64,000 nt of DNA, from contig CBDFLE010000005.1 of assembly GCA_965248925.1 (NCBI GenBank), positions 1,568,001-1,632,000 of the forward strand, in the 5' to 3' direction. Both the position numbers and the translations under genes were made by a program. Below the pieces are notes generated by a model. The model had not been told where the DNA came from. It saw only the letters and a list, made by a program, of their open reading frames with translations, and made no database searches. This DNA comes from Candidatus Multivoradales bacterium (GTDB taxonomy: Bacteria; Acidobacteriota; Thermoanaerobaculia; Multivoradales; J023). Positions 24,704 to 34,858 of this stretch are shown in pieces (within the stretch, counting starts at the first letter, position 1; every line of letters begins with the position of its first letter).

Positions 24704-27187
24704 ATGAAAATCGCCATCCTAGCTCCCAGCCCCGTGCCCTTCACCGTAGGTGGCGCCGAGCGTTTCGTCTGGGGCTTGCTCGACCACTTCAATCGGGCAA
24801 CACCGCACCGCGCCGAGCTGATCAAGCTGCCGCTGCACGAGAGTGGTTTCTGGCAGCTGGTCGGCTCCTATCGGGCGTTCTCGCGCCTCGATCTGGACCA
24901 CTTCGATCTGGTGGTGTCGACCAAGTATCCGAGCTGGATGGTTCATCACCGCCACCATCGGGTGTTGATGCTGCACAAGCTGCGCGGGCTCTACGACACC
25001 TATCCGAACCCTCCAGCAGACCCGGCCGACCTTCACCCGGCGGTCAGCAAGGTCCGCGAACTGCTGCATCAGCCGCCGAATCGCGAGTCGCTGGCGGTGC
25101 TTTTCGACCACCTTGATCGGGCACGTCGCGATCGCTCCCTGCCGCTGGCTGCCCTGCGCTTCCCCGGCCCCTTGGCTCGCGAGGTGGTGCACTTTCTCGA
25201 CGCCGTGGGCCTGGCGCCGCCAGCGATCAGCGGCTACGCGGCGATCTCGCACAACGTGCGCCAGCGGCAGGACTATTTCCCCGCCGGCAGTGAGGTCACA
25301 GTCTGCCATCCACCGCCAGCCCATCGCTGCCCCGATAGCGACGGCGGACAGGGCTACTTCCTCACCCTGGCGCGCTTCGACAACGGCAAGCGAGTTCGCT
25401 TGATGGCTGAAGCCTACCGCTTGGCGAGCACCGAGCTGCCCTTCAAGATCGTCGGCAGTGGACCCCAAGAGGCCGAGTTGCGCGCCATGGCGGCGGCGGA
25501 TCCGCGCCTGGAATTGCTCGGCGCGGTAGCCGAGGCAGCCGTACCAGCCCTCTATGCGGGCGCGCTGGCGGTGCTTTACACCCCTTACGACGAGGACTAT
25601 GGGCTGGTGGCGGCCGAGGCCCTGGCGACCGGCAAACCGGTGATCACCACCGCCGATGCAGGGGGTCCGTTGGAACTGGTCGAGCATGGAGTCAATGGCC
25701 TGGTGGCAGCGCCCGAGGCGACCGCCCTGGCCGCTGAAATCGACCTCCTGGCCAGCACCCCGGAACTGGCCGCCGAACTCGGCGCCGCCGGCCTGAGGGT
25801 CGCCGCCGAACTCACTTGGGAACGTCTGACGGAAGACCTGTTGAGAACTTCGCCAGGCGCCAGCGCCGCCGTCCAGCGCCAGCGACGACCCAAGCTCACC
25901 GTCGCTACCACCTACCCTATTTATCCACCGCGGGGCGGCGGCCAGAGCCGCGTTTTTCACCTCTACCGCCACTTGGCGGAGCACTGGGACATCGAAGTGG
26001 TGAGCTTCACCGACCATGGCGAGGCAGCTTTCGCAGGCCCCATCGCCGCCGGCCTGAGGGAGATCCGATTGCCTAAATCGGCGGTGCATGAGCATCGCGA
26101 GCGGCTGATCGCCGAAACCCTCGGTGGCTTGCCGGCCACTGATCTGCTGATGCCTGAGCTGTGGTCGTTGACCCCTGAATATGGCGAGCGGCTGCGCGCT
26201 TCAGGTCAGGACGCCGAAGCGGTCGTCGCTTGCCAACCCTACTTGTGGCCGGCAATCGACGGCTGTCTGGCCAACAAGCCGCTGTTTTATGACTCACAGA
26301 ACGTCGAAGCGAATCTCAAGGCCGCCGTGCTGCCGGACAACCCGCTCGGCCAACACTGGCTCGCCGAGGTTCGCCGAGTCGAAGGCGAGTGCTGCCGGCA
26401 AGCCCTCCTGACCTTGGTTTGCAGCCTCGACGAAGGCACCGAGATGGCGACCCTCTACGGCCTCGACGCGGACCGTTTTAGACTGGTGGCCAACGGTACC
26501 GACCTCGATTCGGTCACCTACGTCGATCTCGAAGAACGCCTCCTAGCAAGGCTCCGTGGCGGCCTCGAAGACACCTTCTGCGCCCTCTTCATGGGCAGCT
26601 GGCATCCTCCCAATCTGAAAGCACTGGAAGTGATCCTCGCCCTGGCAGAGTCCACGCCCGATATCTGTTTTCTGGTCATGGGCAGTGTTGGTCAAGCGGT
26701 GCGACGTGACGCCCTGCCCGGCAATGTGGCACTGCTCGGAGTGGTCGACAACCCAACCAAAGATCTGCTGCTGGGCATCGCCGATGTGGCGCTAAACCCT
26801 ATGTCCAATGGCGCCGGCACAAATCTGAAAATGCTCGATTATCTGGCCGCCGGCCTGCCGCTGCTGTCGACCCCTTTCGGCGCCCGCGGCCTCGACCTCG
26901 ACCCCGAGCGCCATCTCTGGTTAGCCGATCTCGACGACCTCGGCGAGGCTCTCGCCCAGTTGCGTTCAAGCAGTGACGAGGAACGAGCCAAGCGCGCCGC
27001 CGCCGGCTACCAGCAGGTCCGCCAGCACTACAGCTGGCGCTCCATCGCCGAGCACTATCACCGCGCTTTGCGGCTGGCGCTGGGGCTCGCCGAAGAGTCC
27101 TCCAGCCTTCCCGCCGCGCCGATCCGCACCAACTCCAGTCGCTCCACCGCCAGCGCCAACAGGCGCTCGTCATCGGCGGTCCGCTGA
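24704..27187 (+). CDS. Tandem two-domain glycosyltransferase family 4
   Basis: Domain 1 has GGAE..DEDYGLVAAEA. Domain 2 has PPRGGGQSR..GTNLKMLDYLAAGLP. Confidence 0.88.
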   Translation: MKIAILAPSPVPFTVGGAERFVWGLLDHFNRATPHRAELIKLPLHESGFWQLVGSYRAFSRLDLDHFDLVVSTKYPSWMVHHRHHRVLMLHKLRGLYDTYPNPPADPADLHPAVSKVRELLHQPPNRESLAVLFDHLDRARRDRSLPLAALRFPGPLAREVVHFLDAVGLAPPAISGYAAISHNVRQRQDYFPAGSEVTVCHPPPAHRCPDSDGGQGYFLTLARFDNGKRVRLMAEAYRLASTELPFKIVGSGPQEAELRAMAAADPRLELLGAVAEAAVPALYAGALAVLYTPYDEDYGLVAAEALATGKPVITTADAGGPLELVEHGVNGLVAAPEATALAAEIDLLASTPELAAELGAAGLRVAAELTWERLTEDLLRTSPGASAAVQRQRRPKLTVATTYPIYPPRGGGQSRVFHLYRHLAEHWDIEVVSFTDHGEAAFAGPIAAGLREIRLPKSAVHEHRERLIAETLGGLPATDLLMPELWSLTPEYGERLRASGQDAEAVVACQPYLWPAIDGCLANKPLFYDSQNVEANLKAAVLPDNPLGQHWLAEVRRVEGECCRQALLTLVCSLDEGTEMATLYGLDADRFRLVANGTDLDSVTYVDLEERLLARLRGGLEDTFCALFMGSWHPPNLKALEVILALAESTPDICFLVMGSVGQAVRRDALPGNVALLGVVDNPTKDLLLGIADVALNPMSNGAGTNLKMLDYLAAGLPLLSTPFGARGLDLDPERHLWLADLDDLGEALAQLRSSSDEERAKRAAAGYQQVRQHYSWRSIAEHYHRALRLALGLAEESSSLPAAPIRTNSSRSTASANRRSSSAVR

Positions 27188-29394
27188 GCATCGGGGAGGT
27201 CGAAGGCAATGATGTTCGGGGTCCGGACGCTGAGTATTGCCGCCGGCACCAGCAAGCTTCGATCACTGGCGTCGAAACCCTCGAACCACAACTCGCCGAG
27301 GTCTTTCCCGTTGATCTGCACCCGCACCCGCTGACTACCGAGAGCGCGGGCACGCAGCTGCAATCGATGGTCCCAGCCTGCCGCGCCCTTAGGCAGCGGA
27401 TAAGCCAGCCGGGAGCGTTCGCCATCGGTCCACCGCCAACCAGCCTCGGCACGGCTAAAGCCATCCAGGAAGTAAGGCTCGGCATCGAAGCCCAGCCCGG
27501 CCCGCGGCGCCTCGAGCGGTGAGATCCACAGCGAACGCAAGGCAATCCCCACTACCCGACCATCTAGGGCGCTGGCCGGAGCCGCACCCGGCACCAGAAC
27601 CTGCAGAGAGTGGCTCGCTGGGGAACCGCCAGCCGCAGCCTCGGCACTGCTCAGGAAGGCTTCTCTGGAGAAGGCAAAACGGCCGATCTGAGGCTCGAAA
27701 CCAGCGTAGACCCAGCGGCCTAGGGTCGTGCCATCCAGGCGCAACTCGACCTCCTGCCGCCCATTCCCGCTGGCTTCCAAATGGAGCACATAGCTCGACC
27801 CGCGCGGCGCCTTCTGCAAGCGAAAATGCAAAGAGGAAGTCCCGTCCGACCACTGCCATTGTCGTTCCGGATGATGCCAGCCATCAAACACCGCCCGCTC
27901 GCCCCCGGGCTCGATCGCTTCGCCAAAGGAGTAGGGCAGCAACTCAAGCCACTGGTGTTTGAGATAGCGCGCCTCCAGATTGCCGAGCCGGGCCAAGAAC
28001 TGCGGGTGACGCCAATCGAAGAGCAGATGTGGGTTGCGCTCCAAATCGGGCATCACGCTCCACAGCCGCGGCGCTGGATTGAACAGCCCCTGCCAGACAT
28101 GGATCCAAATGGCGACAACCCCGAGCAGCAGATAGGCGAAAGCCCACCCGCGAGCCACCGTCGACGATTGGCCAGGGCCGCGCAAGCGCTCCCAAACCAA
28201 AGCCGCCAGCAGCGCGACAGGAGGCATCATTTCGGTCAAGAGCCGCGGCCCAAAAGAGTATCCGCCCCACCAATAGCCCTTGATCGAAGCGCCCAGCAAA
28301 TGACTACCCCACCACACCGCCAGCAGCCAAAAGAGCGGCTGCTGGACCAGCTGCCGCAGCTTGAAAACCACTCCCGCAAGCACCACGATCACAAACGGAC
28401 AGAAGATCAGCAACCCGCGGGACGGACTGATCAGATTGCCCTGCAAGCCGTGCAACAGCGGCGTCCAGGCAGTCAGCCGTCGCGGCGAGTAGTACTCGGG
28501 GATTTGCTCACCCAACAGCCACCATCCAGCGACCGCCGCGAGAGCCACCACCACCGCCGCAGCAGCTGCCCACCAAAGGGCCCGGCGCGTCTGCGACCGG
28601 GCGTAAAGAAGGGCGCCATAAACCACCACGGCGACCACGAAAAATCCCGCCGTCGGCCGACAGGCGTAAGCTGCGACCAGCAAGATCCCGACATAGAGCG
28701 GCCGCGAGCGGGCGCCCGGCAGGCGCCGCGCCCGCACCAACTGGCGCAACGCCAACAACAGGAAAACCAAAACAAAGTCAATGCTCCACAAACCCGTGGC
28801 CAGGGTGCTTATCAGCATGCTGCCGAGGGTGCTCAGCAGAGCGATCACCAAGCCAGCACGGTGGCCTACGAGCAGTCGGCAAATCTGGTAGAGCAGCACG
28901 AAGATCCAAGCCGTCAGCAGCGCCGAGAACACATCCTGCAACGCCGCCTCGTCAGCCAACAACAGCATGTTGAAGCCCAGCCGACGTGCTAGCCATACCG
29001 CCGGCACGGACAGTAGCGGCACGACCGGCGAAAAATAGAAACTGCCTCCATCACGATGCCGAATCCGGTAGTCCCCATCGAGATCATAGGTCAGCAGCGG
29101 ATGGTCGCGGTAGACCTCCAGATCGGGGCTGTGGTGTTCGAGCCAGGCTTGGGAGGCGAGTAACAGCAGGGCCGAGTCGGAGTTCGCGGTCTCGATCGGC
29201 GTACCCCAAGCCAACGCGGCGATCAACAACCCCAAGACAAAGGTACGCAGGGGGTGCTCGGCAAACCAGATCGGAGGTGGTTTGCAAACCACCGGGACTG
29301 CTGTACCATCGGGGCCTGACGAATCAGGGTTCCTGCTGCTCGAATGTGCCTTGTTTGACGTTCGGCCGCTTATTGAAGATGTTTTTGAACTCAT
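27058..29394 (-). CDS. Polytopic membrane protein, GT-C-like, with two C-terminal periplasmic beta-sandwich repeats
   Basis: About 11 hydrophobic segments, LISPSRGLLIFCP, WWGGYSFGPRLL, and repeats GWHHPE..WQWSDG / GFSRAE..WRWTDG. Start uncertain. Confidence 0.72.
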   Translation of the reverse strand: MSSKTSSISGRTSNKAHSSSRNPDSSGPDGTAVPVVCKPPPIWFAEHPLRTFVLGLLIAALAWGTPIETANSDSALLLLASQAWLEHHSPDLEVYRDHPLLTYDLDGDYRIRHRDGGSFYFSPVVPLLSVPAVWLARRLGFNMLLLADEAALQDVFSALLTAWIFVLLYQICRLLVGHRAGLVIALLSTLGSMLISTLATGLWSIDFVLVFLLLALRQLVRARRLPGARSRPLYVGILLVAAYACRPTAGFFVVAVVVYGALLYARSQTRRALWWAAAAAVVVALAAVAGWWLLGEQIPEYYSPRRLTAWTPLLHGLQGNLISPSRGLLIFCPFVIVVLAGVVFKLRQLVQQPLFWLLAVWWGSHLLGASIKGYWWGGYSFGPRLLTEMMPPVALLAALVWERLRGPGQSSTVARGWAFAYLLLGVVAIWIHVWQGLFNPAPRLWSVMPDLERNPHLLFDWRHPQFLARLGNLEARYLKHQWLELLPYSFGEAIEPGGERAVFDGWHHPERQWQWSDGTSSLHFRLQKAPRGSSYVLHLEASGNGRQEVELRLDGTTLGRWVYAGFEPQIGRFAFSREAFLSSAEAAAGGSPASHSLQVLVPGAAPASALDGRVVGIALRSLWISPLEAPRAGLGFDAEPYFLDGFSRAEAGWRWTDGERSRLAYPLPKGAAGWDHRLQLRARALGSQRVRVQINGKDLGELWFEGFDASDRSLLVPAAILSVRTPNIIAFDLPDAQRTADDERLLALAVERLELVRIGAAGRLEDSSASPSASRKAR

Positions 29395-29474: not shown

Positions 29475-30503
29475 ATGGCACATCCTCACTCGGTCCCGTC
29501 CTTTCTCACGGCGGGGCTGCTGGTGATAGTGCTGTTCGCATTGCTGCCTGGAGTCGAGCCCGAAGCTCAGACCGAGGTCACCGACTCGAACGCTGCCACG
29601 GCCCCTGCGGAAGACCTGCCCGCGGAAAGCTTGCCCGCAGCCTTTTTCCTCGGCCCGCAAGCCTGCTTGCAATGCCACTTCGAGCGCTTTGAAAGCTACG
29701 AGAACAGCCCCCACGGGCTGATCAACGATCCCCGCACTCCGGCGTCGCGTAACGGCTGCGAGACTTGCCACAACCCCGGCAGCAACCACGTCGGAGGGGG
29801 TGGCGGCCGCGGCATCGGCGAAATGCAGAACTTCACCGACGCGACACCGGTGGGGGTGCGCAACGGGGTCTGCCTGCAATGCCACAACCGCGGCTATCCG
29901 GCGCTGTGGATGGGCAGCATGCACGAGACCCGGCAACTCGCCTGCACCGACTGCCACAGCATTCACAAGGGCCATCGCAAACTGCTAGTCGAAGCCAGCC
30001 AACCGCAGGTCTGCACTCGCTGCCACCAGCTGATTCGCGCTCAACTGCTGCGCCCCTCTCGCCATCCAATCCGTGAAGAAAAGCTGGTCTGCACCGACTG
30101 CCACAATCCCCACGGCACCCTCACCGAGCGGCTGATCGACGCCAATACGGTGAACGAGAAGTGCTACGACTGCCATGCCGAAAAGCGTGGCCCGTTCCTC
30201 TGGGACCATCCGCCGGTGCGCGAGAGCTGCCTCAATTGCCATGAGCCCCACGGCTCAACCCACGAGCCGCTGCTCAAGCTCAAACGCCCCTTCCTCTGCC
30301 AGCGTTGTCACGCCGACCCGGACCACGCCAACGTTCTGTGGGCGCTGAGCGAGGAAGAAGCCGCCGCCGGCCTGTCGCCCTACGAACTGCCGGACCGCCG
30401 CAGCGGCCGTCCGGCGGCGCAGCTCTTCAACCGGAGCTGTACCAATTGTCACGTCAACTTCCACGGCAGCAACCACCCCTCCGGGCGTTGGTTCCATCGC
30501 TAG
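29475..30503 (+). CDS. mtrA: Decaheme c-type cytochrome, DmsE/MtrA/PioA/MtoA family
   Basis: Ten CxxCH motifs counted (CLQCH, CETCH, CLQCH, CTDCH, CTRCH, CTDCH, CYDCH, CLNCH, CQRCH, CTNCH), plus EKRGPFLWDHPPV and HGSNHPSG. Signal peptide from ATG 29475. Confidence 0.95.
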   Translation: MAHPHSVPSFLTAGLLVIVLFALLPGVEPEAQTEVTDSNAATAPAEDLPAESLPAAFFLGPQACLQCHFERFESYENSPHGLINDPRTPASRNGCETCHNPGSNHVGGGGGRGIGEMQNFTDATPVGVRNGVCLQCHNRGYPALWMGSMHETRQLACTDCHSIHKGHRKLLVEASQPQVCTRCHQLIRAQLLRPSRHPIREEKLVCTDCHNPHGTLTERLIDANTVNEKCYDCHAEKRGPFLWDHPPVRESCLNCHEPHGSTHEPLLKLKRPFLCQRCHADPDHANVLWALSEEEAAAGLSPYELPDRRSGRPAAQLFNRSCTNCHVNFHGSNHPSGRWFHR

Positions 30504-30517
30504 GCGAGGAGGCTAAG

Positions 30518-33031
30518 ATGCTCAAGTCCTTGAATTGCCCGCCGCTCCTAGCCACCCTCTGGCTGCTCGCCGCGGTCTGGCCAGCTTTGATCGTCGCCGA
30601 GGAAGAACACCAGCTAGAGACCGAGGCCCCCAACATCGAGGCCGAGGCCGAAGTCGAGAGTCCGCCCACTGAAGAACAAGTGATCGACATCGAACAACGC
30701 TGGCGGCTAACCCCGCGGCGCGACTTCGAGTTTCGCCTGAGCCCCAACGTTGGCCTGCGCACTCCCCTGTTGAGCCCCCTCTACAGCAAGACCCAACCCG
30801 ACTATCTCGGCACCCCGCGAGAGCGCCCCAATAATTGGGCGTTGGCGGCGTCGCTGACTACTTTGACCGCCTCGGGAGAGCGTGATTCGGGCAAGGCCCA
30901 GGAATTCCGCGACCTCAGCGACGGAGTGGCGGTGGGAGTCGACGCCCAGCTGCGCACCGCCAAGAGCTGGCTGCGGCTCAGCGGTCGCCACTTGCTGCGC
31001 GACGACCACGATGTACGTCTGGAATTGCGCCATTTCGGTGTCTTCAAGACCAGCCTCTACCTCAACGCGATTCCCCACAACTACGTCTTCGACACGCCGT
31101 CGCTCTACCGCGGTGTCGGCAGCGGTCGGCTGACTATCGACGACGCCACCCGCACCAGCTTGCAGGGCTCGACCTCATTGCAAGACGCCGCCCAGCGCGC
31201 CGAGGCGGCGGTGGCGGCGGCACCACGGGTCGATCTCGGCCACACCCGCGACCGCTTGCGCTTCGATCTCGACTTCACTCTGCTGCACCCGCTGACTGTG
31301 CAACTGCGTTTCGATCGCGAATCGCGCCAAGGGACCCGGCCGTGGAGCGGTAGCTTCGGCTTCAGCAACTTCGTCGAGATCCCCTGGCCGGTGGACTACG
31401 ACACCGAGAGCGCCCGCTTGACTGTCGAGTACGCCAACAAGAAATCCTTCTTCAAAGCGAGCTATCGGGCGAGTTCCTTCGACAACAACATCAGCAGCGT
31501 GCAGTTCGACAATCCCTGGCGACTGACCGACCAGAGCGGTTCGCCGCCAGCAATTTTAGCGAGCTATCAGAATGGCCCGGCGAGCGGTCTGATCGACCTC
31601 TATCCGACCAACGAGAGCCACGATCTGAGCTTCACCGGCCTGCTGCGCGAGCTGCCGTGGAAGGGCAATCTGTCGGCCACCGTGGCCTGGGGGCGGATGG
31701 AGCAAGACGACCCCCTGCTGCCCTTCACCACCAACACCACTATCGTGCCGGGGCAGGCGGGCAATCCTCCCTTCGACGCCTCAGACCCGGCCAACCAAGT
31801 GATCGACCGGGTGCGCAGCCAATTCGACACCCGGCTGATTCACCTCCGCTACACCGCCAAGCCGAAGCCCTTCATGCGCTTGAAGTTGCAGTTCCGCGAC
31901 TATCAAGTCAACAACGAGTCCGATCGGGTCCTCTTCCCCGGCTTCGTGGTCGAGGACGCGGCCTACCGGGCACCGGCTACCGGTTCCGACGGCTTTACTA
32001 ATGTGCCGATCGCTTGGCAACGCTCGCGGCTGAGTGGCGAACTAGCCTTCGATGTGGCCAAGAAGAGCCGGCTGACTTTCTTGCTCGAACACCGCGAGAC
32101 CGACCGCGAGTTTCGCGAAGTGGCCAAGTCGGAAGAAGACCGGTTCAAAGTCTCCTATGACTCCAAGCCCCACGACTGGCTGGAACTCAAACTCTCCTAC
32201 TTGCTTTCCGAGCGCCGCATCGACACCTACGACTTCGCCCAATTCTTCAGCGAACAAGGCAGAACCCGCTTCATCCCGGTGTTGCCGCTGCTGCGCAAAT
32301 TCGACCAGGCCGAGCGCGACCGCGATCGCTGGCAACTGATCGTCTCGTTCTACCCCAATGACTCGTTGCAAATCGTCACCTCGGCGATTGTCGGCAACGA
32401 CACCTATCCGGATTCCGAATTCGGCCTACAGAGTTCCGATCACCGCATCTATTCGGCCGATCTGGCGTGGACCGCCAACCCTCGCTTCAGCCTCTACAGC
32501 TCGCTCAGCTGGGAGAACTTCGACAAAACCCAGCGCTCACGGCAGTGGCAGTTCTTCCAAGCCGGCGACCCCTTCAATCTGGAACCTGGAGTGGCGTCGA
32601 ACAGCAATTGGCGGGCCGATCACAGCGACGATATTCAGACCTTCACCGCTGGGCTGGAGGCGGTCCTGGTGCCTGACAAAGTGAAGTTCGAATGTGTTCT
32701 GACTTGGGTCGAGACCGATGGTGAGATCCTGCTGTCGAGCCCCATCGGCGAGGTCGATGCCAATCCCTTTGATCCGGCCGATTTTCGCTCGGTCGACGAT
32801 GTTGAGATCCTCACCCTGCAACCCAAGCTCGAACTCACCCTGGGCGAGCATCTGGCCCTTGAAGCTTCTTACTTCCGCGAGGAATACAGCATTGACGACA
32901 TCGGTACTCAGGGCTATCGCCTGGTGCCGGTGACCCGCGACGGTGCGTTCAACGGCGCCATTCTGATGGGCAGCCAACCCACCAACTACGATCTCGACGT
33001 GGTCTACCTGACTTTGAAGCTGGGTCTGTGA
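30518..33031 (+). CDS. mtrB: MtrB/PioB-family outer-membrane beta-barrel
   Basis: GAGGAGG RBS and signal peptide. About 840 aa of amphipathic beta-strands (KAQEFRD, EIPWPVDY, FDNP, LRKFDQAERDR), directly after the decaheme gene. Confidence 0.9.
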   Translation: MLKSLNCPPLLATLWLLAAVWPALIVAEEEHQLETEAPNIEAEAEVESPPTEEQVIDIEQRWRLTPRRDFEFRLSPNVGLRTPLLSPLYSKTQPDYLGTPRERPNNWALAASLTTLTASGERDSGKAQEFRDLSDGVAVGVDAQLRTAKSWLRLSGRHLLRDDHDVRLELRHFGVFKTSLYLNAIPHNYVFDTPSLYRGVGSGRLTIDDATRTSLQGSTSLQDAAQRAEAAVAAAPRVDLGHTRDRLRFDLDFTLLHPLTVQLRFDRESRQGTRPWSGSFGFSNFVEIPWPVDYDTESARLTVEYANKKSFFKASYRASSFDNNISSVQFDNPWRLTDQSGSPPAILASYQNGPASGLIDLYPTNESHDLSFTGLLRELPWKGNLSATVAWGRMEQDDPLLPFTTNTTIVPGQAGNPPFDASDPANQVIDRVRSQFDTRLIHLRYTAKPKPFMRLKLQFRDYQVNNESDRVLFPGFVVEDAAYRAPATGSDGFTNVPIAWQRSRLSGELAFDVAKKSRLTFLLEHRETDREFREVAKSEEDRFKVSYDSKPHDWLELKLSYLLSERRIDTYDFAQFFSEQGRTRFIPVLPLLRKFDQAERDRDRWQLIVSFYPNDSLQIVTSAIVGNDTYPDSEFGLQSSDHRIYSADLAWTANPRFSLYSSLSWENFDKTQRSRQWQFFQAGDPFNLEPGVASNSNWRADHSDDIQTFTAGLEAVLVPDKVKFECVLTWVETDGEILLSSPIGEVDANPFDPADFRSVDDVEILTLQPKLELTLGEHLALEASYFREEYSIDDIGTQGYRLVPVTRDGAFNGAILMGSQPTNYDLDVVYLTLKLGL

Positions 33032-33042
33032 GGAGGTCACCG

Positions 33043-34032
33043 ATGCGCTACCTACCGACCCCCGCAGGCCTACTAAAGGCCCTCGTCGCAGTCTTGCTGC
33101 TGCTTCATCTGGCAGCCACGGCGACCGCCCAGGACGATTGGGGCGACGAGAGCGACAGCGCCTGCGGCGGCCTGCTCGACGATCCCCAAAGACTGGCCGA
33201 AGTGCTGGCGCAAGTGCCCAAGTACGGCACCTCCTGGGCCTTGGTCTTCTCCGACCAGCTCGGCGACCGCGCGCCAAGCGCCGAGCAGCAAGATCTGTCG
33301 TCGCTTTCGGTAGCCACCTTGGCCGACAGCCCGGCGCTGGCGATGGCCGCCGAACTCGGCCAGCCGAACACCACCCCCTACCCACAGGCCAACGCCGGCA
33401 GCGCCGTCGAAGACGTGCTGGCGGGGACGATCGACAGCGCCCTACTATGGGCCCCCTTGGCCGGTCTGGCGGTGCTCGAACTCGACTTCGACTACACCTT
33501 GAGCCTGCTCGGCGTCGGCCCACCGGCTGGACCCGGCGCGGCAAATGCTGGCGCTAGTGCCGCCGCGGCAGCGCCCCTCGACCCTTGTGCCGAAGAAATC
33601 CTCATTACCCTCGAATCCTACGGCGTGGTGCCAGCTGAAAAACGCCAACCGGTCTACATCCGTGACTTGATCCTGTTGCCGGCCCCCGAGCGCAGCCTCG
33701 ACAGCGCCCATTTGGGGGCGCCGATCTACGCCCTGCAATGCGCCAAATGTCATGGCGTCGAAGGGATCGCCGCCAGCGACTCCCTAGCGCCGGTCGATCT
33801 GCAGATCTCGGTGCGCCGCTTCAGTTGGCCAGGCTTTCTCTACATCGCGCTCAACGGCCGGCCGCAGAACGGCATGCCGGGCTTCCGTGGCGCCATCGAG
33901 CGCCAGCAGCTGGAGGAGATCTATCAGTACGTCCGCGAGCGTAGCTACGGTACCCTGACGGTCACCGGCAACTACCCGGTACCCGGCAGCGAGTCAGCAG
34001 CAGTCGCCCAAGACTCGTCATCCGACCCCTAG
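33043..34032 (+). CDS. Periplasmic fusion: MxaJ/XoxJ-like binding-protein segment + monoheme cytochrome c
   Basis: Signal peptide. YGTSWALVF and DVLAGTIDSALLWAPLAG resemble MxaJ/XoxJ motifs. C-terminal CAKCH with GMPGF axial Met. Confidence 0.7.
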   Translation: MRYLPTPAGLLKALVAVLLLLHLAATATAQDDWGDESDSACGGLLDDPQRLAEVLAQVPKYGTSWALVFSDQLGDRAPSAEQQDLSSLSVATLADSPALAMAAELGQPNTTPYPQANAGSAVEDVLAGTIDSALLWAPLAGLAVLELDFDYTLSLLGVGPPAGPGAANAGASAAAAAPLDPCAEEILITLESYGVVPAEKRQPVYIRDLILLPAPERSLDSAHLGAPIYALQCAKCHGVEGIAASDSLAPVDLQISVRRFSWPGFLYIALNGRPQNGMPGFRGAIERQQLEEIYQYVRERSYGTLTVTGNYPVPGSESAAVAQDSSSDP

Positions 34033-34054
34033 TCCAGAAACAAGGAGCGCAGAT

Positions 34055-34858
34055 ATGACCTCCCGACCCACCCTCCACCGGCGCCTGCTGCAAACTGCGC
34101 TAGTGCTGATTTTGACCGCCGGCTTCCTCGCCCCGACCACCGCCAGCGCCGATGGCACCATCGAAGGCAAGGTGGTCTTCAGCGGCAAACCGCGGCGCAA
34201 CCCGCTGATCCGCATGGGCGCCGATCCCAACTGCCTGGAGATCAACCAGGGCAAGAAAGTCGTGAACCACATCGTCAAACTCGGCGAAGGCGGTGCGGTC
34301 GGCGAGGTCTTCGTCCACCTCACCGGTGAAGTAACCTACAGCGGCGGCGTGCCAACCAAGCCCGTGGTGATCGTTCAAGAAGGCTGCATCTACCATCCCA
34401 AGGTCAGCGGTGGCATGGTCGGCCAGACCCTCAAGGTGATCAACAAAGACGCTACCTTGCACAACATCCATGCGATCTCCGACAAACGCAACAACTTCAA
34501 CGTCGGCCAGCCCAAAGCGGGCATGGAATACGAGACCAAGCTCGCTTCCGCGGAAGTCATGCTAAAGGTGAAATGCGACGTCCACCCGTGGATGCAGGGC
34601 TACATCGGTGTGCTCTCCCATCCCTACTTCGCAGTCACTAACGACGACGGTACTTTCCGCATCGAGAACGTGCCGGCTGGCAGCTACTCCCTACAAGCCC
34701 TGCAAGCCCGCCTGGGCACCGAAGACCAGCAGATCGAGGTCAAGGACGGCGAAACCGTGACCGTCGAATTCACCTACGGCCCGCCCACCTCCGCCGAGCT
34801 TTTCGACGGCGGCTTGCCGGTTAAAGAGCTGACCGTCCACACCGCCGCGGCACGCTAG
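34055..34858 (+). CDS. Secreted cupredoxin-like protein with carboxypeptidase-regulatory-like domain
   Basis: Signal peptide. LHNIH and KCDVHPWM give a His/Cys/His/Met type-1 copper ligand pattern. FAVTNDDGTFRIENVPAGSY is a CarboxypepD_reg-like motif. Confidence 0.75.
   Translation: MTSRPTLHRRLLQTALVLILTAGFLAPTTASADGTIEGKVVFSGKPRRNPLIRMGADPNCLEINQGKKVVNHIVKLGEGGAVGEVFVHLTGEVTYSGGVPTKPVVIVQEGCIYHPKVSGGMVGQTLKVINKDATLHNIHAISDKRNNFNVGQPKAGMEYETKLASAEVMLKVKCDVHPWMQGYIGVLSHPYFAVTNDDGTFRIENVPAGSYSLQALQARLGTEDQQIEVKDGETVTVEFTYGPPTSAELFDGGLPVKELTVHTAAAR

Follow-up and report, generated by a model that had tools for sequence, protein, structure and literature searches.

The module lies at positions 29475–34858 of the window (the whole 64,000-nucleotide stretch of DNA that was analysed) and consists of four co-oriented open reading frames on the forward strand, separated by gaps of 14, 11 and 22 bp. 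Gene 1 (29475–30503) encodes an MtrA/DmsE-family decaheme c-type cytochrome of 342 residues with ten CxxCH motifs and gene 2 (30518–33031) an MtrB/PioB-family outer-membrane porin of 837 residues. Gene 3 (33043–34032; 329 residues) fuses a single-lobe XoxJ-like domain to a His/Met monoheme cytochrome c, and gene 4 (34055–34858; 267 residues) encodes, according to its model and its homologs, a cupredoxin inserted in a carboxypeptidase-regulatory-like β-sandwich. The preliminary description of this DNA had recognized the tight spacing and common orientation, which the coordinates and gaps confirm, and had named a decaheme, a porin, a monoheme cytochrome and a cupredoxin; these identities stand, except that the XoxJ-like part comprises one lobe and that the gene 4 product has two domains. 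Signal peptides were assigned to all four products by eye, and a regular-expression search for a lipobox or twin-arginine motif found none in 40 gene 3, 39 gene 4 and 46 gene 1 homologs. A promoter and terminator scan was at chance level. Glycosyltransferase genes surround the module. The reverse strand of the window (27058–29394) encodes a 778-residue membrane protein with no Pfam match, homologs of which (36–41% identity) flank the module on the opposite side in genomes G006 and G011, so that the glycosylation-gene neighbourhood is partly conserved.

The gene 1 product passes the TIGR03508 cut-off (270 versus 192 bits) and matches chain A of PDB entry 6R2Q with an E value of 3e-60. Its first heme motif is located at residue 64, and at least ten conserved histidines outside the motifs are candidate distal ligands. 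The gene 2 product scores above the PF11854 cut-off (285 versus 23 bits) and below that of TIGR03509 (202 versus 240 bits). Throughout this family the porin positions the decaheme so that it spans the outer membrane, and the homology to 6R2Q suggests that the products of genes 1 and 2 form such a complex and transfer electrons across the membrane. The ten module porins compared contain 105–165 residues before the first family-wide porin motif, versus 50–54 in five sister porins. This N-terminal extension, which is specific to the module (approximately residues 58–105; 30689–30832), is conserved and carries a net positive charge in 10/10 porins, making it a candidate periplasmic docking segment. 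The half-J lobe of gene 3 is net negative in 42/42 homologs, and we hypothesize that the acidic lobe docks on the basic extension. The closest homolog of gene 1 (P0308; 86% identity) has an NR entry labelled as a pipefish and is probably bacterial contamination of that assembly.

A family scan of gene 3 returned PF13442 and a weak MoxJ_2 match, which at 32 bits falls short of the cut-off of 212 for TIGR03871, the model of the two-lobe XoxJ/MxaJ proteins; gene 3 has a single lobe. The predicted structure (pLDDT 83.7) has two domains. Residues ∼38–200 (33154–33642) fold as a single class II binding-protein lobe, closest by profile to XoxJ (6ONP; E value 1e-8), and model residues 64–161 superpose on the isolated domain 2 of TmArgBP with a Z score of 9.3 and an r.m.s.d. 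of 2.2 (90/92 residues aligned). This acidic lobe contains a conserved pair of cysteines (Cys41 and Cys182) that is likely to form a disulfide. The monoheme domain (33643–33957), assigned by motif, alignment and fold match, carries its CxxCH motif at residues 233–237 and the distal ligand Met278, which is replaced by His in 4/42 homologs. It resembles XoxG (6ONQ; Z score 10.0, r.m.s.d. 3.1, 97 residues aligned), a match that ties with those to other class I cytochromes. Gene 3 is colinear with a full XoxJ–cytochrome fusion (P0190) from residue 87 of the latter onwards, and a scan of the genome contigs with the gene 3 protein alone returned four weak cytochrome matches only.

Gene 4 gave a weak amicyanin match (19 bits, cut-off 110) and a match to PF13620. 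In its model (pLDDT 89.7) a cupredoxin domain (residues 101–187; 34355–34615) sits inside a transthyretin-like sandwich and superposes on amicyanin (1AAC) with a Z score of 11.2 and an r.m.s.d. of 2.1 for 85 aligned residues. His136, Cys174, His177 and Met180, the last three in a C-x2-H-x2-M loop, align with the amicyanin ligand motifs and are invariant in 120/120 aligned homologs; the full type-1 set is present in 49/49 locus-derived rows, whether from the module, cox-linked or other copies. The domain has the fold and ligands of a type-1 blue copper protein, and is predicted to bind copper. The comparison with rusticyanin in the preliminary description is a loose one, given the amicyanin-like ligand loop and the association of the family with oxidase operons. 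The surrounding β-sandwich is non-redox and matches scaffolding domains, including a chain of the hydrazine dehydrogenase complex. The family is large (1520 matches) and misannotated, with source labels that include plastocyanin and TonB-dependent receptor, and the literature searched yielded no characterized member. Pfam and NCBIfam scans of genes 3 and 4 gave no HiPIP match.

The host genome (G000; 8.0 Mb, 97% complete) contains a single MtrA and a single MtrB, and close homologs carry Thermoanaerobaculia source labels, which suggests that the host belongs to this class of Acidobacteriota. An MtrB match was found in 13/41 related genomes, five of the module type (host included; 48–51% identity) and eight of a distant type (25–32%). 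The four-gene order occurs in nine Acidobacteriota genomes (the host, G011, G012, G015, G006, G235, G271, G413 and G668), which span three families, one outside the class of the host; in G006 mtrA lies off the contig end. Synteny was counted over 43 loci with gene 3 (35 from metagenomes and eight from genomes, near-duplicates included and f28-family homologs left out). Gene 4 is directly downstream of gene 3 in 40/40 testable loci, and at these gene 3 loci mtrB is directly upstream in 24/26 and mtrA two genes upstream in 14/15. The exceptions are L040 and L041, in which mtrAB is adjacent but divergent. In L040 (L040:3059-9587) an mtrA–mtrB–gene 4 set diverges from a gene 3–gene 4 pair, giving two cupredoxin copies, and in the gene 3 of this lineage the distal Met is replaced by His. 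The conserved synteny that the preliminary description had suggested looking for is thus found in nine genomes and in metagenome loci, and because it recurs in other genomes the arrangement is not a chance one.

The module is rare, occurring in 6/401 genomes of the class and in 2/401 of the phylum (G000 and G668). Module-specific clades were recovered in trees of genes 1, 3 and 4: quick trees of gene 1 (15 module and eight non-module rows; SH-aLRT 99) and gene 3 (18 module and six non-module rows; support 99), and a gene 4 tree in which the module copies form a group of their own (27/49 rows; support 100/99). Relatedness and some redundancy among the genomes and loci mean that their counts are not independent, and the distance correlations among the four genes (0.53–0.84 over 13 loci) reflect kinship and are no proof of co-evolution. 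A sequencing-run search listed four holders, with no RNA holder among those listed, and is not evidence either way.

Sister genomes contain a second, distant MtrAB type (L025, L026, L028 and L031) that has no MtrC at the locus and adjoins a NapC/NrfH-type tetraheme cytochrome, plus a monoheme cytochrome in two cases, a layout closer to that of classic Mto.

The relatives of gene 3 are found in XoxJ/PQQ-dehydrogenase operons. In 4/4 sampled genomes of family f28, genes of its sister clade share operons with a full XoxJ and a PQQ dehydrogenase (L124 and L128–L130; the dehydrogenase was confirmed over its cut-off for L124 and L129). Sister-clade genes adjoin another β-propeller gene in L125 and L131, and in L126 a relative of gene 3 with reversed domain order follows a dehydrogenase–XoxJ pair. 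The PQQ-linked forms are basal in a gene 3 tree rooted with one long outgroup, and gene 3 may therefore have been recruited into the Mtr module from them. The f28 genomes themselves (G419, G437, G503 and G536; L124, L126 and L128–L130) are small, carry half-XoxJ/cytochrome fusions in both domain orders together with genes resembling components of the H4MPT/formylmethanofuran pathway, and are candidate methylotrophs. According to PMC8498564, XoxGJ fusions serve as electron acceptors and are postulated to supply a terminal oxidase; PMC12276312 describes MxaJ as a chaperone.

Relatives of gene 4 are found mostly at the head of CuA oxidase operons. We took the best full-length family match in each of 41 genomes (five module copies and 36 others). 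Among the non-module paralogs, 22/36 lie within 400 bp of cytochrome oxidase subunit I, 21 of them co-oriented upstream and one divergent; the count used 45 of the listed COX1 rows, and four unmatched contigs had no COX1 row among the matches listed. In the two copies of the linked subunit II that were inspected, a CuA-type motif is present and a heme motif absent. The paralog–cox pair is found in 8/9 module genomes, and G668 has the pair within ∼3 kb. In G235 the module itself is followed, after a junction of ∼80 bp with a GC stem-loop, by the genes for coxA, coxC, a small subunit, coxB and heme o synthase, and the module gene 4 fills the slot normally held by the paralog; this direct fusion occurs in that one genome. 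Both small partners derive from downstream roles, gene 3 from PQQ-dehydrogenase operons and gene 4 from CuA oxidase operons. In the host, a cupredoxin/β-sandwich gene (L033; G000:C6:3328860-3329573) heads a coxA–coxC–small subunit–coxB operon, as do its relatives in many Thermoanaerobaculia-type genomes; these operons lie near ACIII-like genes, and their subunit II carries Gln in the CuA loop and lacks a heme motif. The cupredoxin is possibly an undescribed copper donor of this oxidase type.

No protein of the host genome reaches the MtrC cut-off (best score 22.5 versus 209 bits). The family is absent from every module locus and, at that cut-off, from seven of the nine module genomes. The reported lack of MtrC therefore holds for the host and for all module loci, with the qualification that an orphan MtrC occurs elsewhere in two module genomes. 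These two, G235 and G271, are fragmented assemblies in which an MtrC-family decaheme scores over the cut-off on a contig away from mtrAB; one MtrB was detected in each, and MtrC could hence pair with it in trans. No lipobox is evident by eye in the orphan OmcA/MtrC-family decahemes (L143:3308-5467 and L144:1205-3397), and that of G271 is divergent from a multiheme cluster. A further host cluster (G000:C6:5009968-5020233) encodes 10-, 12- and 5-heme cytochromes, unrelated to MtrA by tblastn, next to FHA-like and flavoprotein genes.

There is no dmsAB or other molybdopterin enzyme at the host locus, the five PF00384 matches (subfamilies read by eye) being far away. A NapC/CymA gene is absent from every module locus and present at three sister MtrAB loci; a NapC-family match occurs somewhere in seven of the nine module genomes. 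No PQQ dehydrogenase is encoded at the host locus. TIGR03075 enzymes, for which both positive controls were detected, exceed the cut-off in one module genome (G235, with two), and the gene 3 profile found no full-length XoxJ in the host. PF03070 matched 0/9 module genomes in a search in which one of two positive controls also failed, and the pqqC search in the host was run without a responding control. With the ancestral dehydrogenase donor mostly missing, MtrA would be the obvious replacement donor to gene 3. Judged from N-termini and motifs, the host has several ACIII-like clusters and one NarGHJ-like cluster, which indicates a facultative lifestyle; one ACIII–cox cluster (G000:C6:2425001-2434186) has genes seemingly fragmented into several frames. 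An autotrophic reading was not adopted: one of the nine module genomes has a RuBisCO family match, form IV-like by our reading of the motif, and no form I or II was found. A Cyc2-like motif was found in 0 of 73,914 six-frame segments, a motif scan of a kind that does not show absence.

From the observed composition of the module, its conserved synteny, the ancestry of its partners and the oxidase linkage, we propose with moderate confidence that it is an Mto/Pio-like uptake conduit that feeds extracellular electrons to O2 respiration in heterotrophs. An uptake conduit with a monoheme and copper relay had been suggested in the preliminary description, and the synteny, the lack of a cognate MtrC in the host and the oxidase linkage support it by context. 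The direction would be inward: an extracellular reductant, for which Fe(II) complexes or minerals and reduced humics or similar compounds are candidate donors, would reduce the decaheme. In the periplasm, the likely order of transfer is from the decaheme to the cytochrome of gene 3, which would be an XoxG-type acceptor put to new use, and to the gene 4 cupredoxin, with the acidic half-XoxJ lobe probably docking gene 3 on the conduit. The cupredoxin, if loaded with copper, would then pass electrons to CuA in an A-type oxidase without a fused cytochrome. High potentials are typical of both type-1 copper and His/Met class I hemes. An aerobic or facultative heterotroph would thereby gain extra proton motive force rather than become autotrophic. 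A more specific version, which we advance only tentatively, is that the module represents a third design for multiheme uptake, in which the acceptor of a PQQ dehydrogenase and the oxidase's own copper donor were recruited and a half-XoxJ clamp on the new porin extension completes a fixed wire from the outside to O2.

The phylogeny of MtrA, MtoA and PioA proposed in the preliminary description cannot settle the direction, because MtoA and PioA form no function-specific clade (PMC8805035). Electrons might instead run outward, or both ways, from the quinol pool (by way of NapC-family proteins or alternative complex III) or a periplasmic dehydrogenase through gene 3 and gene 4 to MtrA and on to soluble acceptors (humics or chelated Fe(III)) or an MtrC encoded elsewhere. 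The descent of gene 3 from PQQ-dehydrogenase acceptors would suit such a route, but the TIGR03075 enzymes that G235 has in duplicate are missing from 8/9 module genomes and a full-length XoxJ was not detected in the host, an argument limited to this dehydrogenase class. Similarly, the orphan MtrC of two module genomes is offset by its absence from seven, whereas NapC-family matches in 7/9, the ACIII-like and NarGHJ-like clusters of a facultative host and the replacement of Met by His in 4/42 gene 3 homologs, suggestive of lower-potential variants, all fit outward flow. Against it stand the oxidase linkage of the gene 4 family and the fact that type-1 copper carriers are poorly suited to donate electrons to a low-potential decaheme. 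Export from periplasmic dehydrogenases, the alternative offered in the preliminary description, is weakened by the finding of TIGR03075 over its cut-off in one of nine module genomes, and we regard export or bidirectional flow as unlikely.

Uptake need not follow gene order either. In Sideroxydans, MtoA showed no interaction with MtoD, although the two are encoded in one operon (PMC13390432), and for this reason gene order may not equal electron order. Gene 4 could help to deliver copper to, or to assemble, the oxidase or the conduit; alternatively, genes 3 and 4 could serve parallel branches to different sinks, for instance the oxidase and nitrate or NO reduction. This non-linear arrangement would account for the second, non-redox β-sandwich of gene 4 with its scaffolding matches, for the chaperone role described for the J-family protein MxaJ (PMC12276312) and for the split, divergent L040 locus with two gene 4 copies, and it has the MtoD precedent; yet the complete type-1 ligand set in 49/49 locus-derived rows and the position of gene 4 after gene 3 in 40/40 testable loci make it distinctly unlikely. 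Still less probable, to the point of being remote, is a non-respiratory role, in which gene 4 or gene 3 would substitute for MtrC on the outer face or the module would serve metal acquisition or detoxification. No homolog scanned has a lipobox, no transporter or metal-regulator neighbour is conserved across loci as inspected by eye, and the gene 4 paralogs are oxidase-operon genes, even though the β-sandwich fold of gene 4 is common in surface proteins and Sideroxydans responds to magnetite by inducing cupredoxin-domain proteins with a predicted extracellular location (PMC12016527).

MtrAB-type homologs in Acidobacteria have been noted before (PMC10654088, PMC8805035 and PMC9671151). The four-gene arrangement was not found in the open-access full texts searched; supplements and subscription journals lay outside this search, and an earlier mention in a neighbourhood table is possible. 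The module is a conserved variant of the MtrAB-only conduits with unusually informative partners. Because the core proteins do not cluster by function, it is a persistent problem to tell which way electrons run through MtrAB-only conduits found in metagenomes; here, the ancestry of the partners together with the operon fusion to a cytochrome oxidase offers a marker of direction. With four genes, the module is also compact enough to be expressed and tested as a unit. If the uptake reading is correct, uncultured Acidobacteriota heterotrophs gain an unrecognized part in the oxidation of Fe(II) or humics, and the gene 4 family, now misannotated, becomes a candidate class of oxidase donors. Under the more tentative third design, several heterotrophic Acidobacteriota lineages would be aerobic lithoheterotrophs on solid or humic donors, and a very large unannotated cupredoxin family would gain a function as CuA donor.

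Among known systems, MtoAB of Sideroxydans lithotrophicus, with MtoD/PmcA and ImoA(CymA), shares with the module a decaheme and porin without MtrC and a co-encoded periplasmic monoheme cytochrome; a high-potential branch from MtoD to the terminal oxidase is proposed in PMC13390432. The module differs in that its operon lacks a NapC-family quinone reductase and adds a cupredoxin, its monoheme protein is a His/Met XoxJ-lobe fusion of unrelated architecture and its hosts have no detected form I or II RuBisCO. PioABC of Rhodopseudomonas palustris TIE-1 also combines a decaheme and a porin with a co-encoded high-potential periplasmic carrier, which is a HiPIP rather than a cupredoxin and a cytochrome; its sink is the reaction centre, whereas that of the module is presumably O2, and PioA has a heme-free N-terminal extension of ∼270 residues (PMC10654088) compared with ∼60 residues before the first heme in gene 1. 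MtrCAB and DmsEFAB of Shewanella have a homologous MtrA/DmsE and MtrB/DmsF core, but no MtrC or DmsAB gene occurs in any module locus examined. The XoxGJ fusion of Methylacidiphilum and the accessory proteins XoxJ and XoxG likewise join a periplasmic binding-protein fold to a class I cytochrome c; the module retains one J lobe, and its partner locus is a porin–cytochrome conduit instead of a PQQ dehydrogenase. The Cyc2–Cyc1–rusticyanin–Cup/AcoP–aa3 chain of Acidithiobacillus ferrooxidans (PMC13741234) has the same logic of outer-membrane entry, a cytochrome and blue-copper relay and an aa3-type oxidase, although entry into the module is by a decaheme conduit rather than Cyc2 and its copper protein has a short amicyanin-type loop and an extra domain. 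By analogy, the module, while not a member of those operon families, would work most like MtoAB or PioABC joined to an Acidithiobacillus-style downhill chain.
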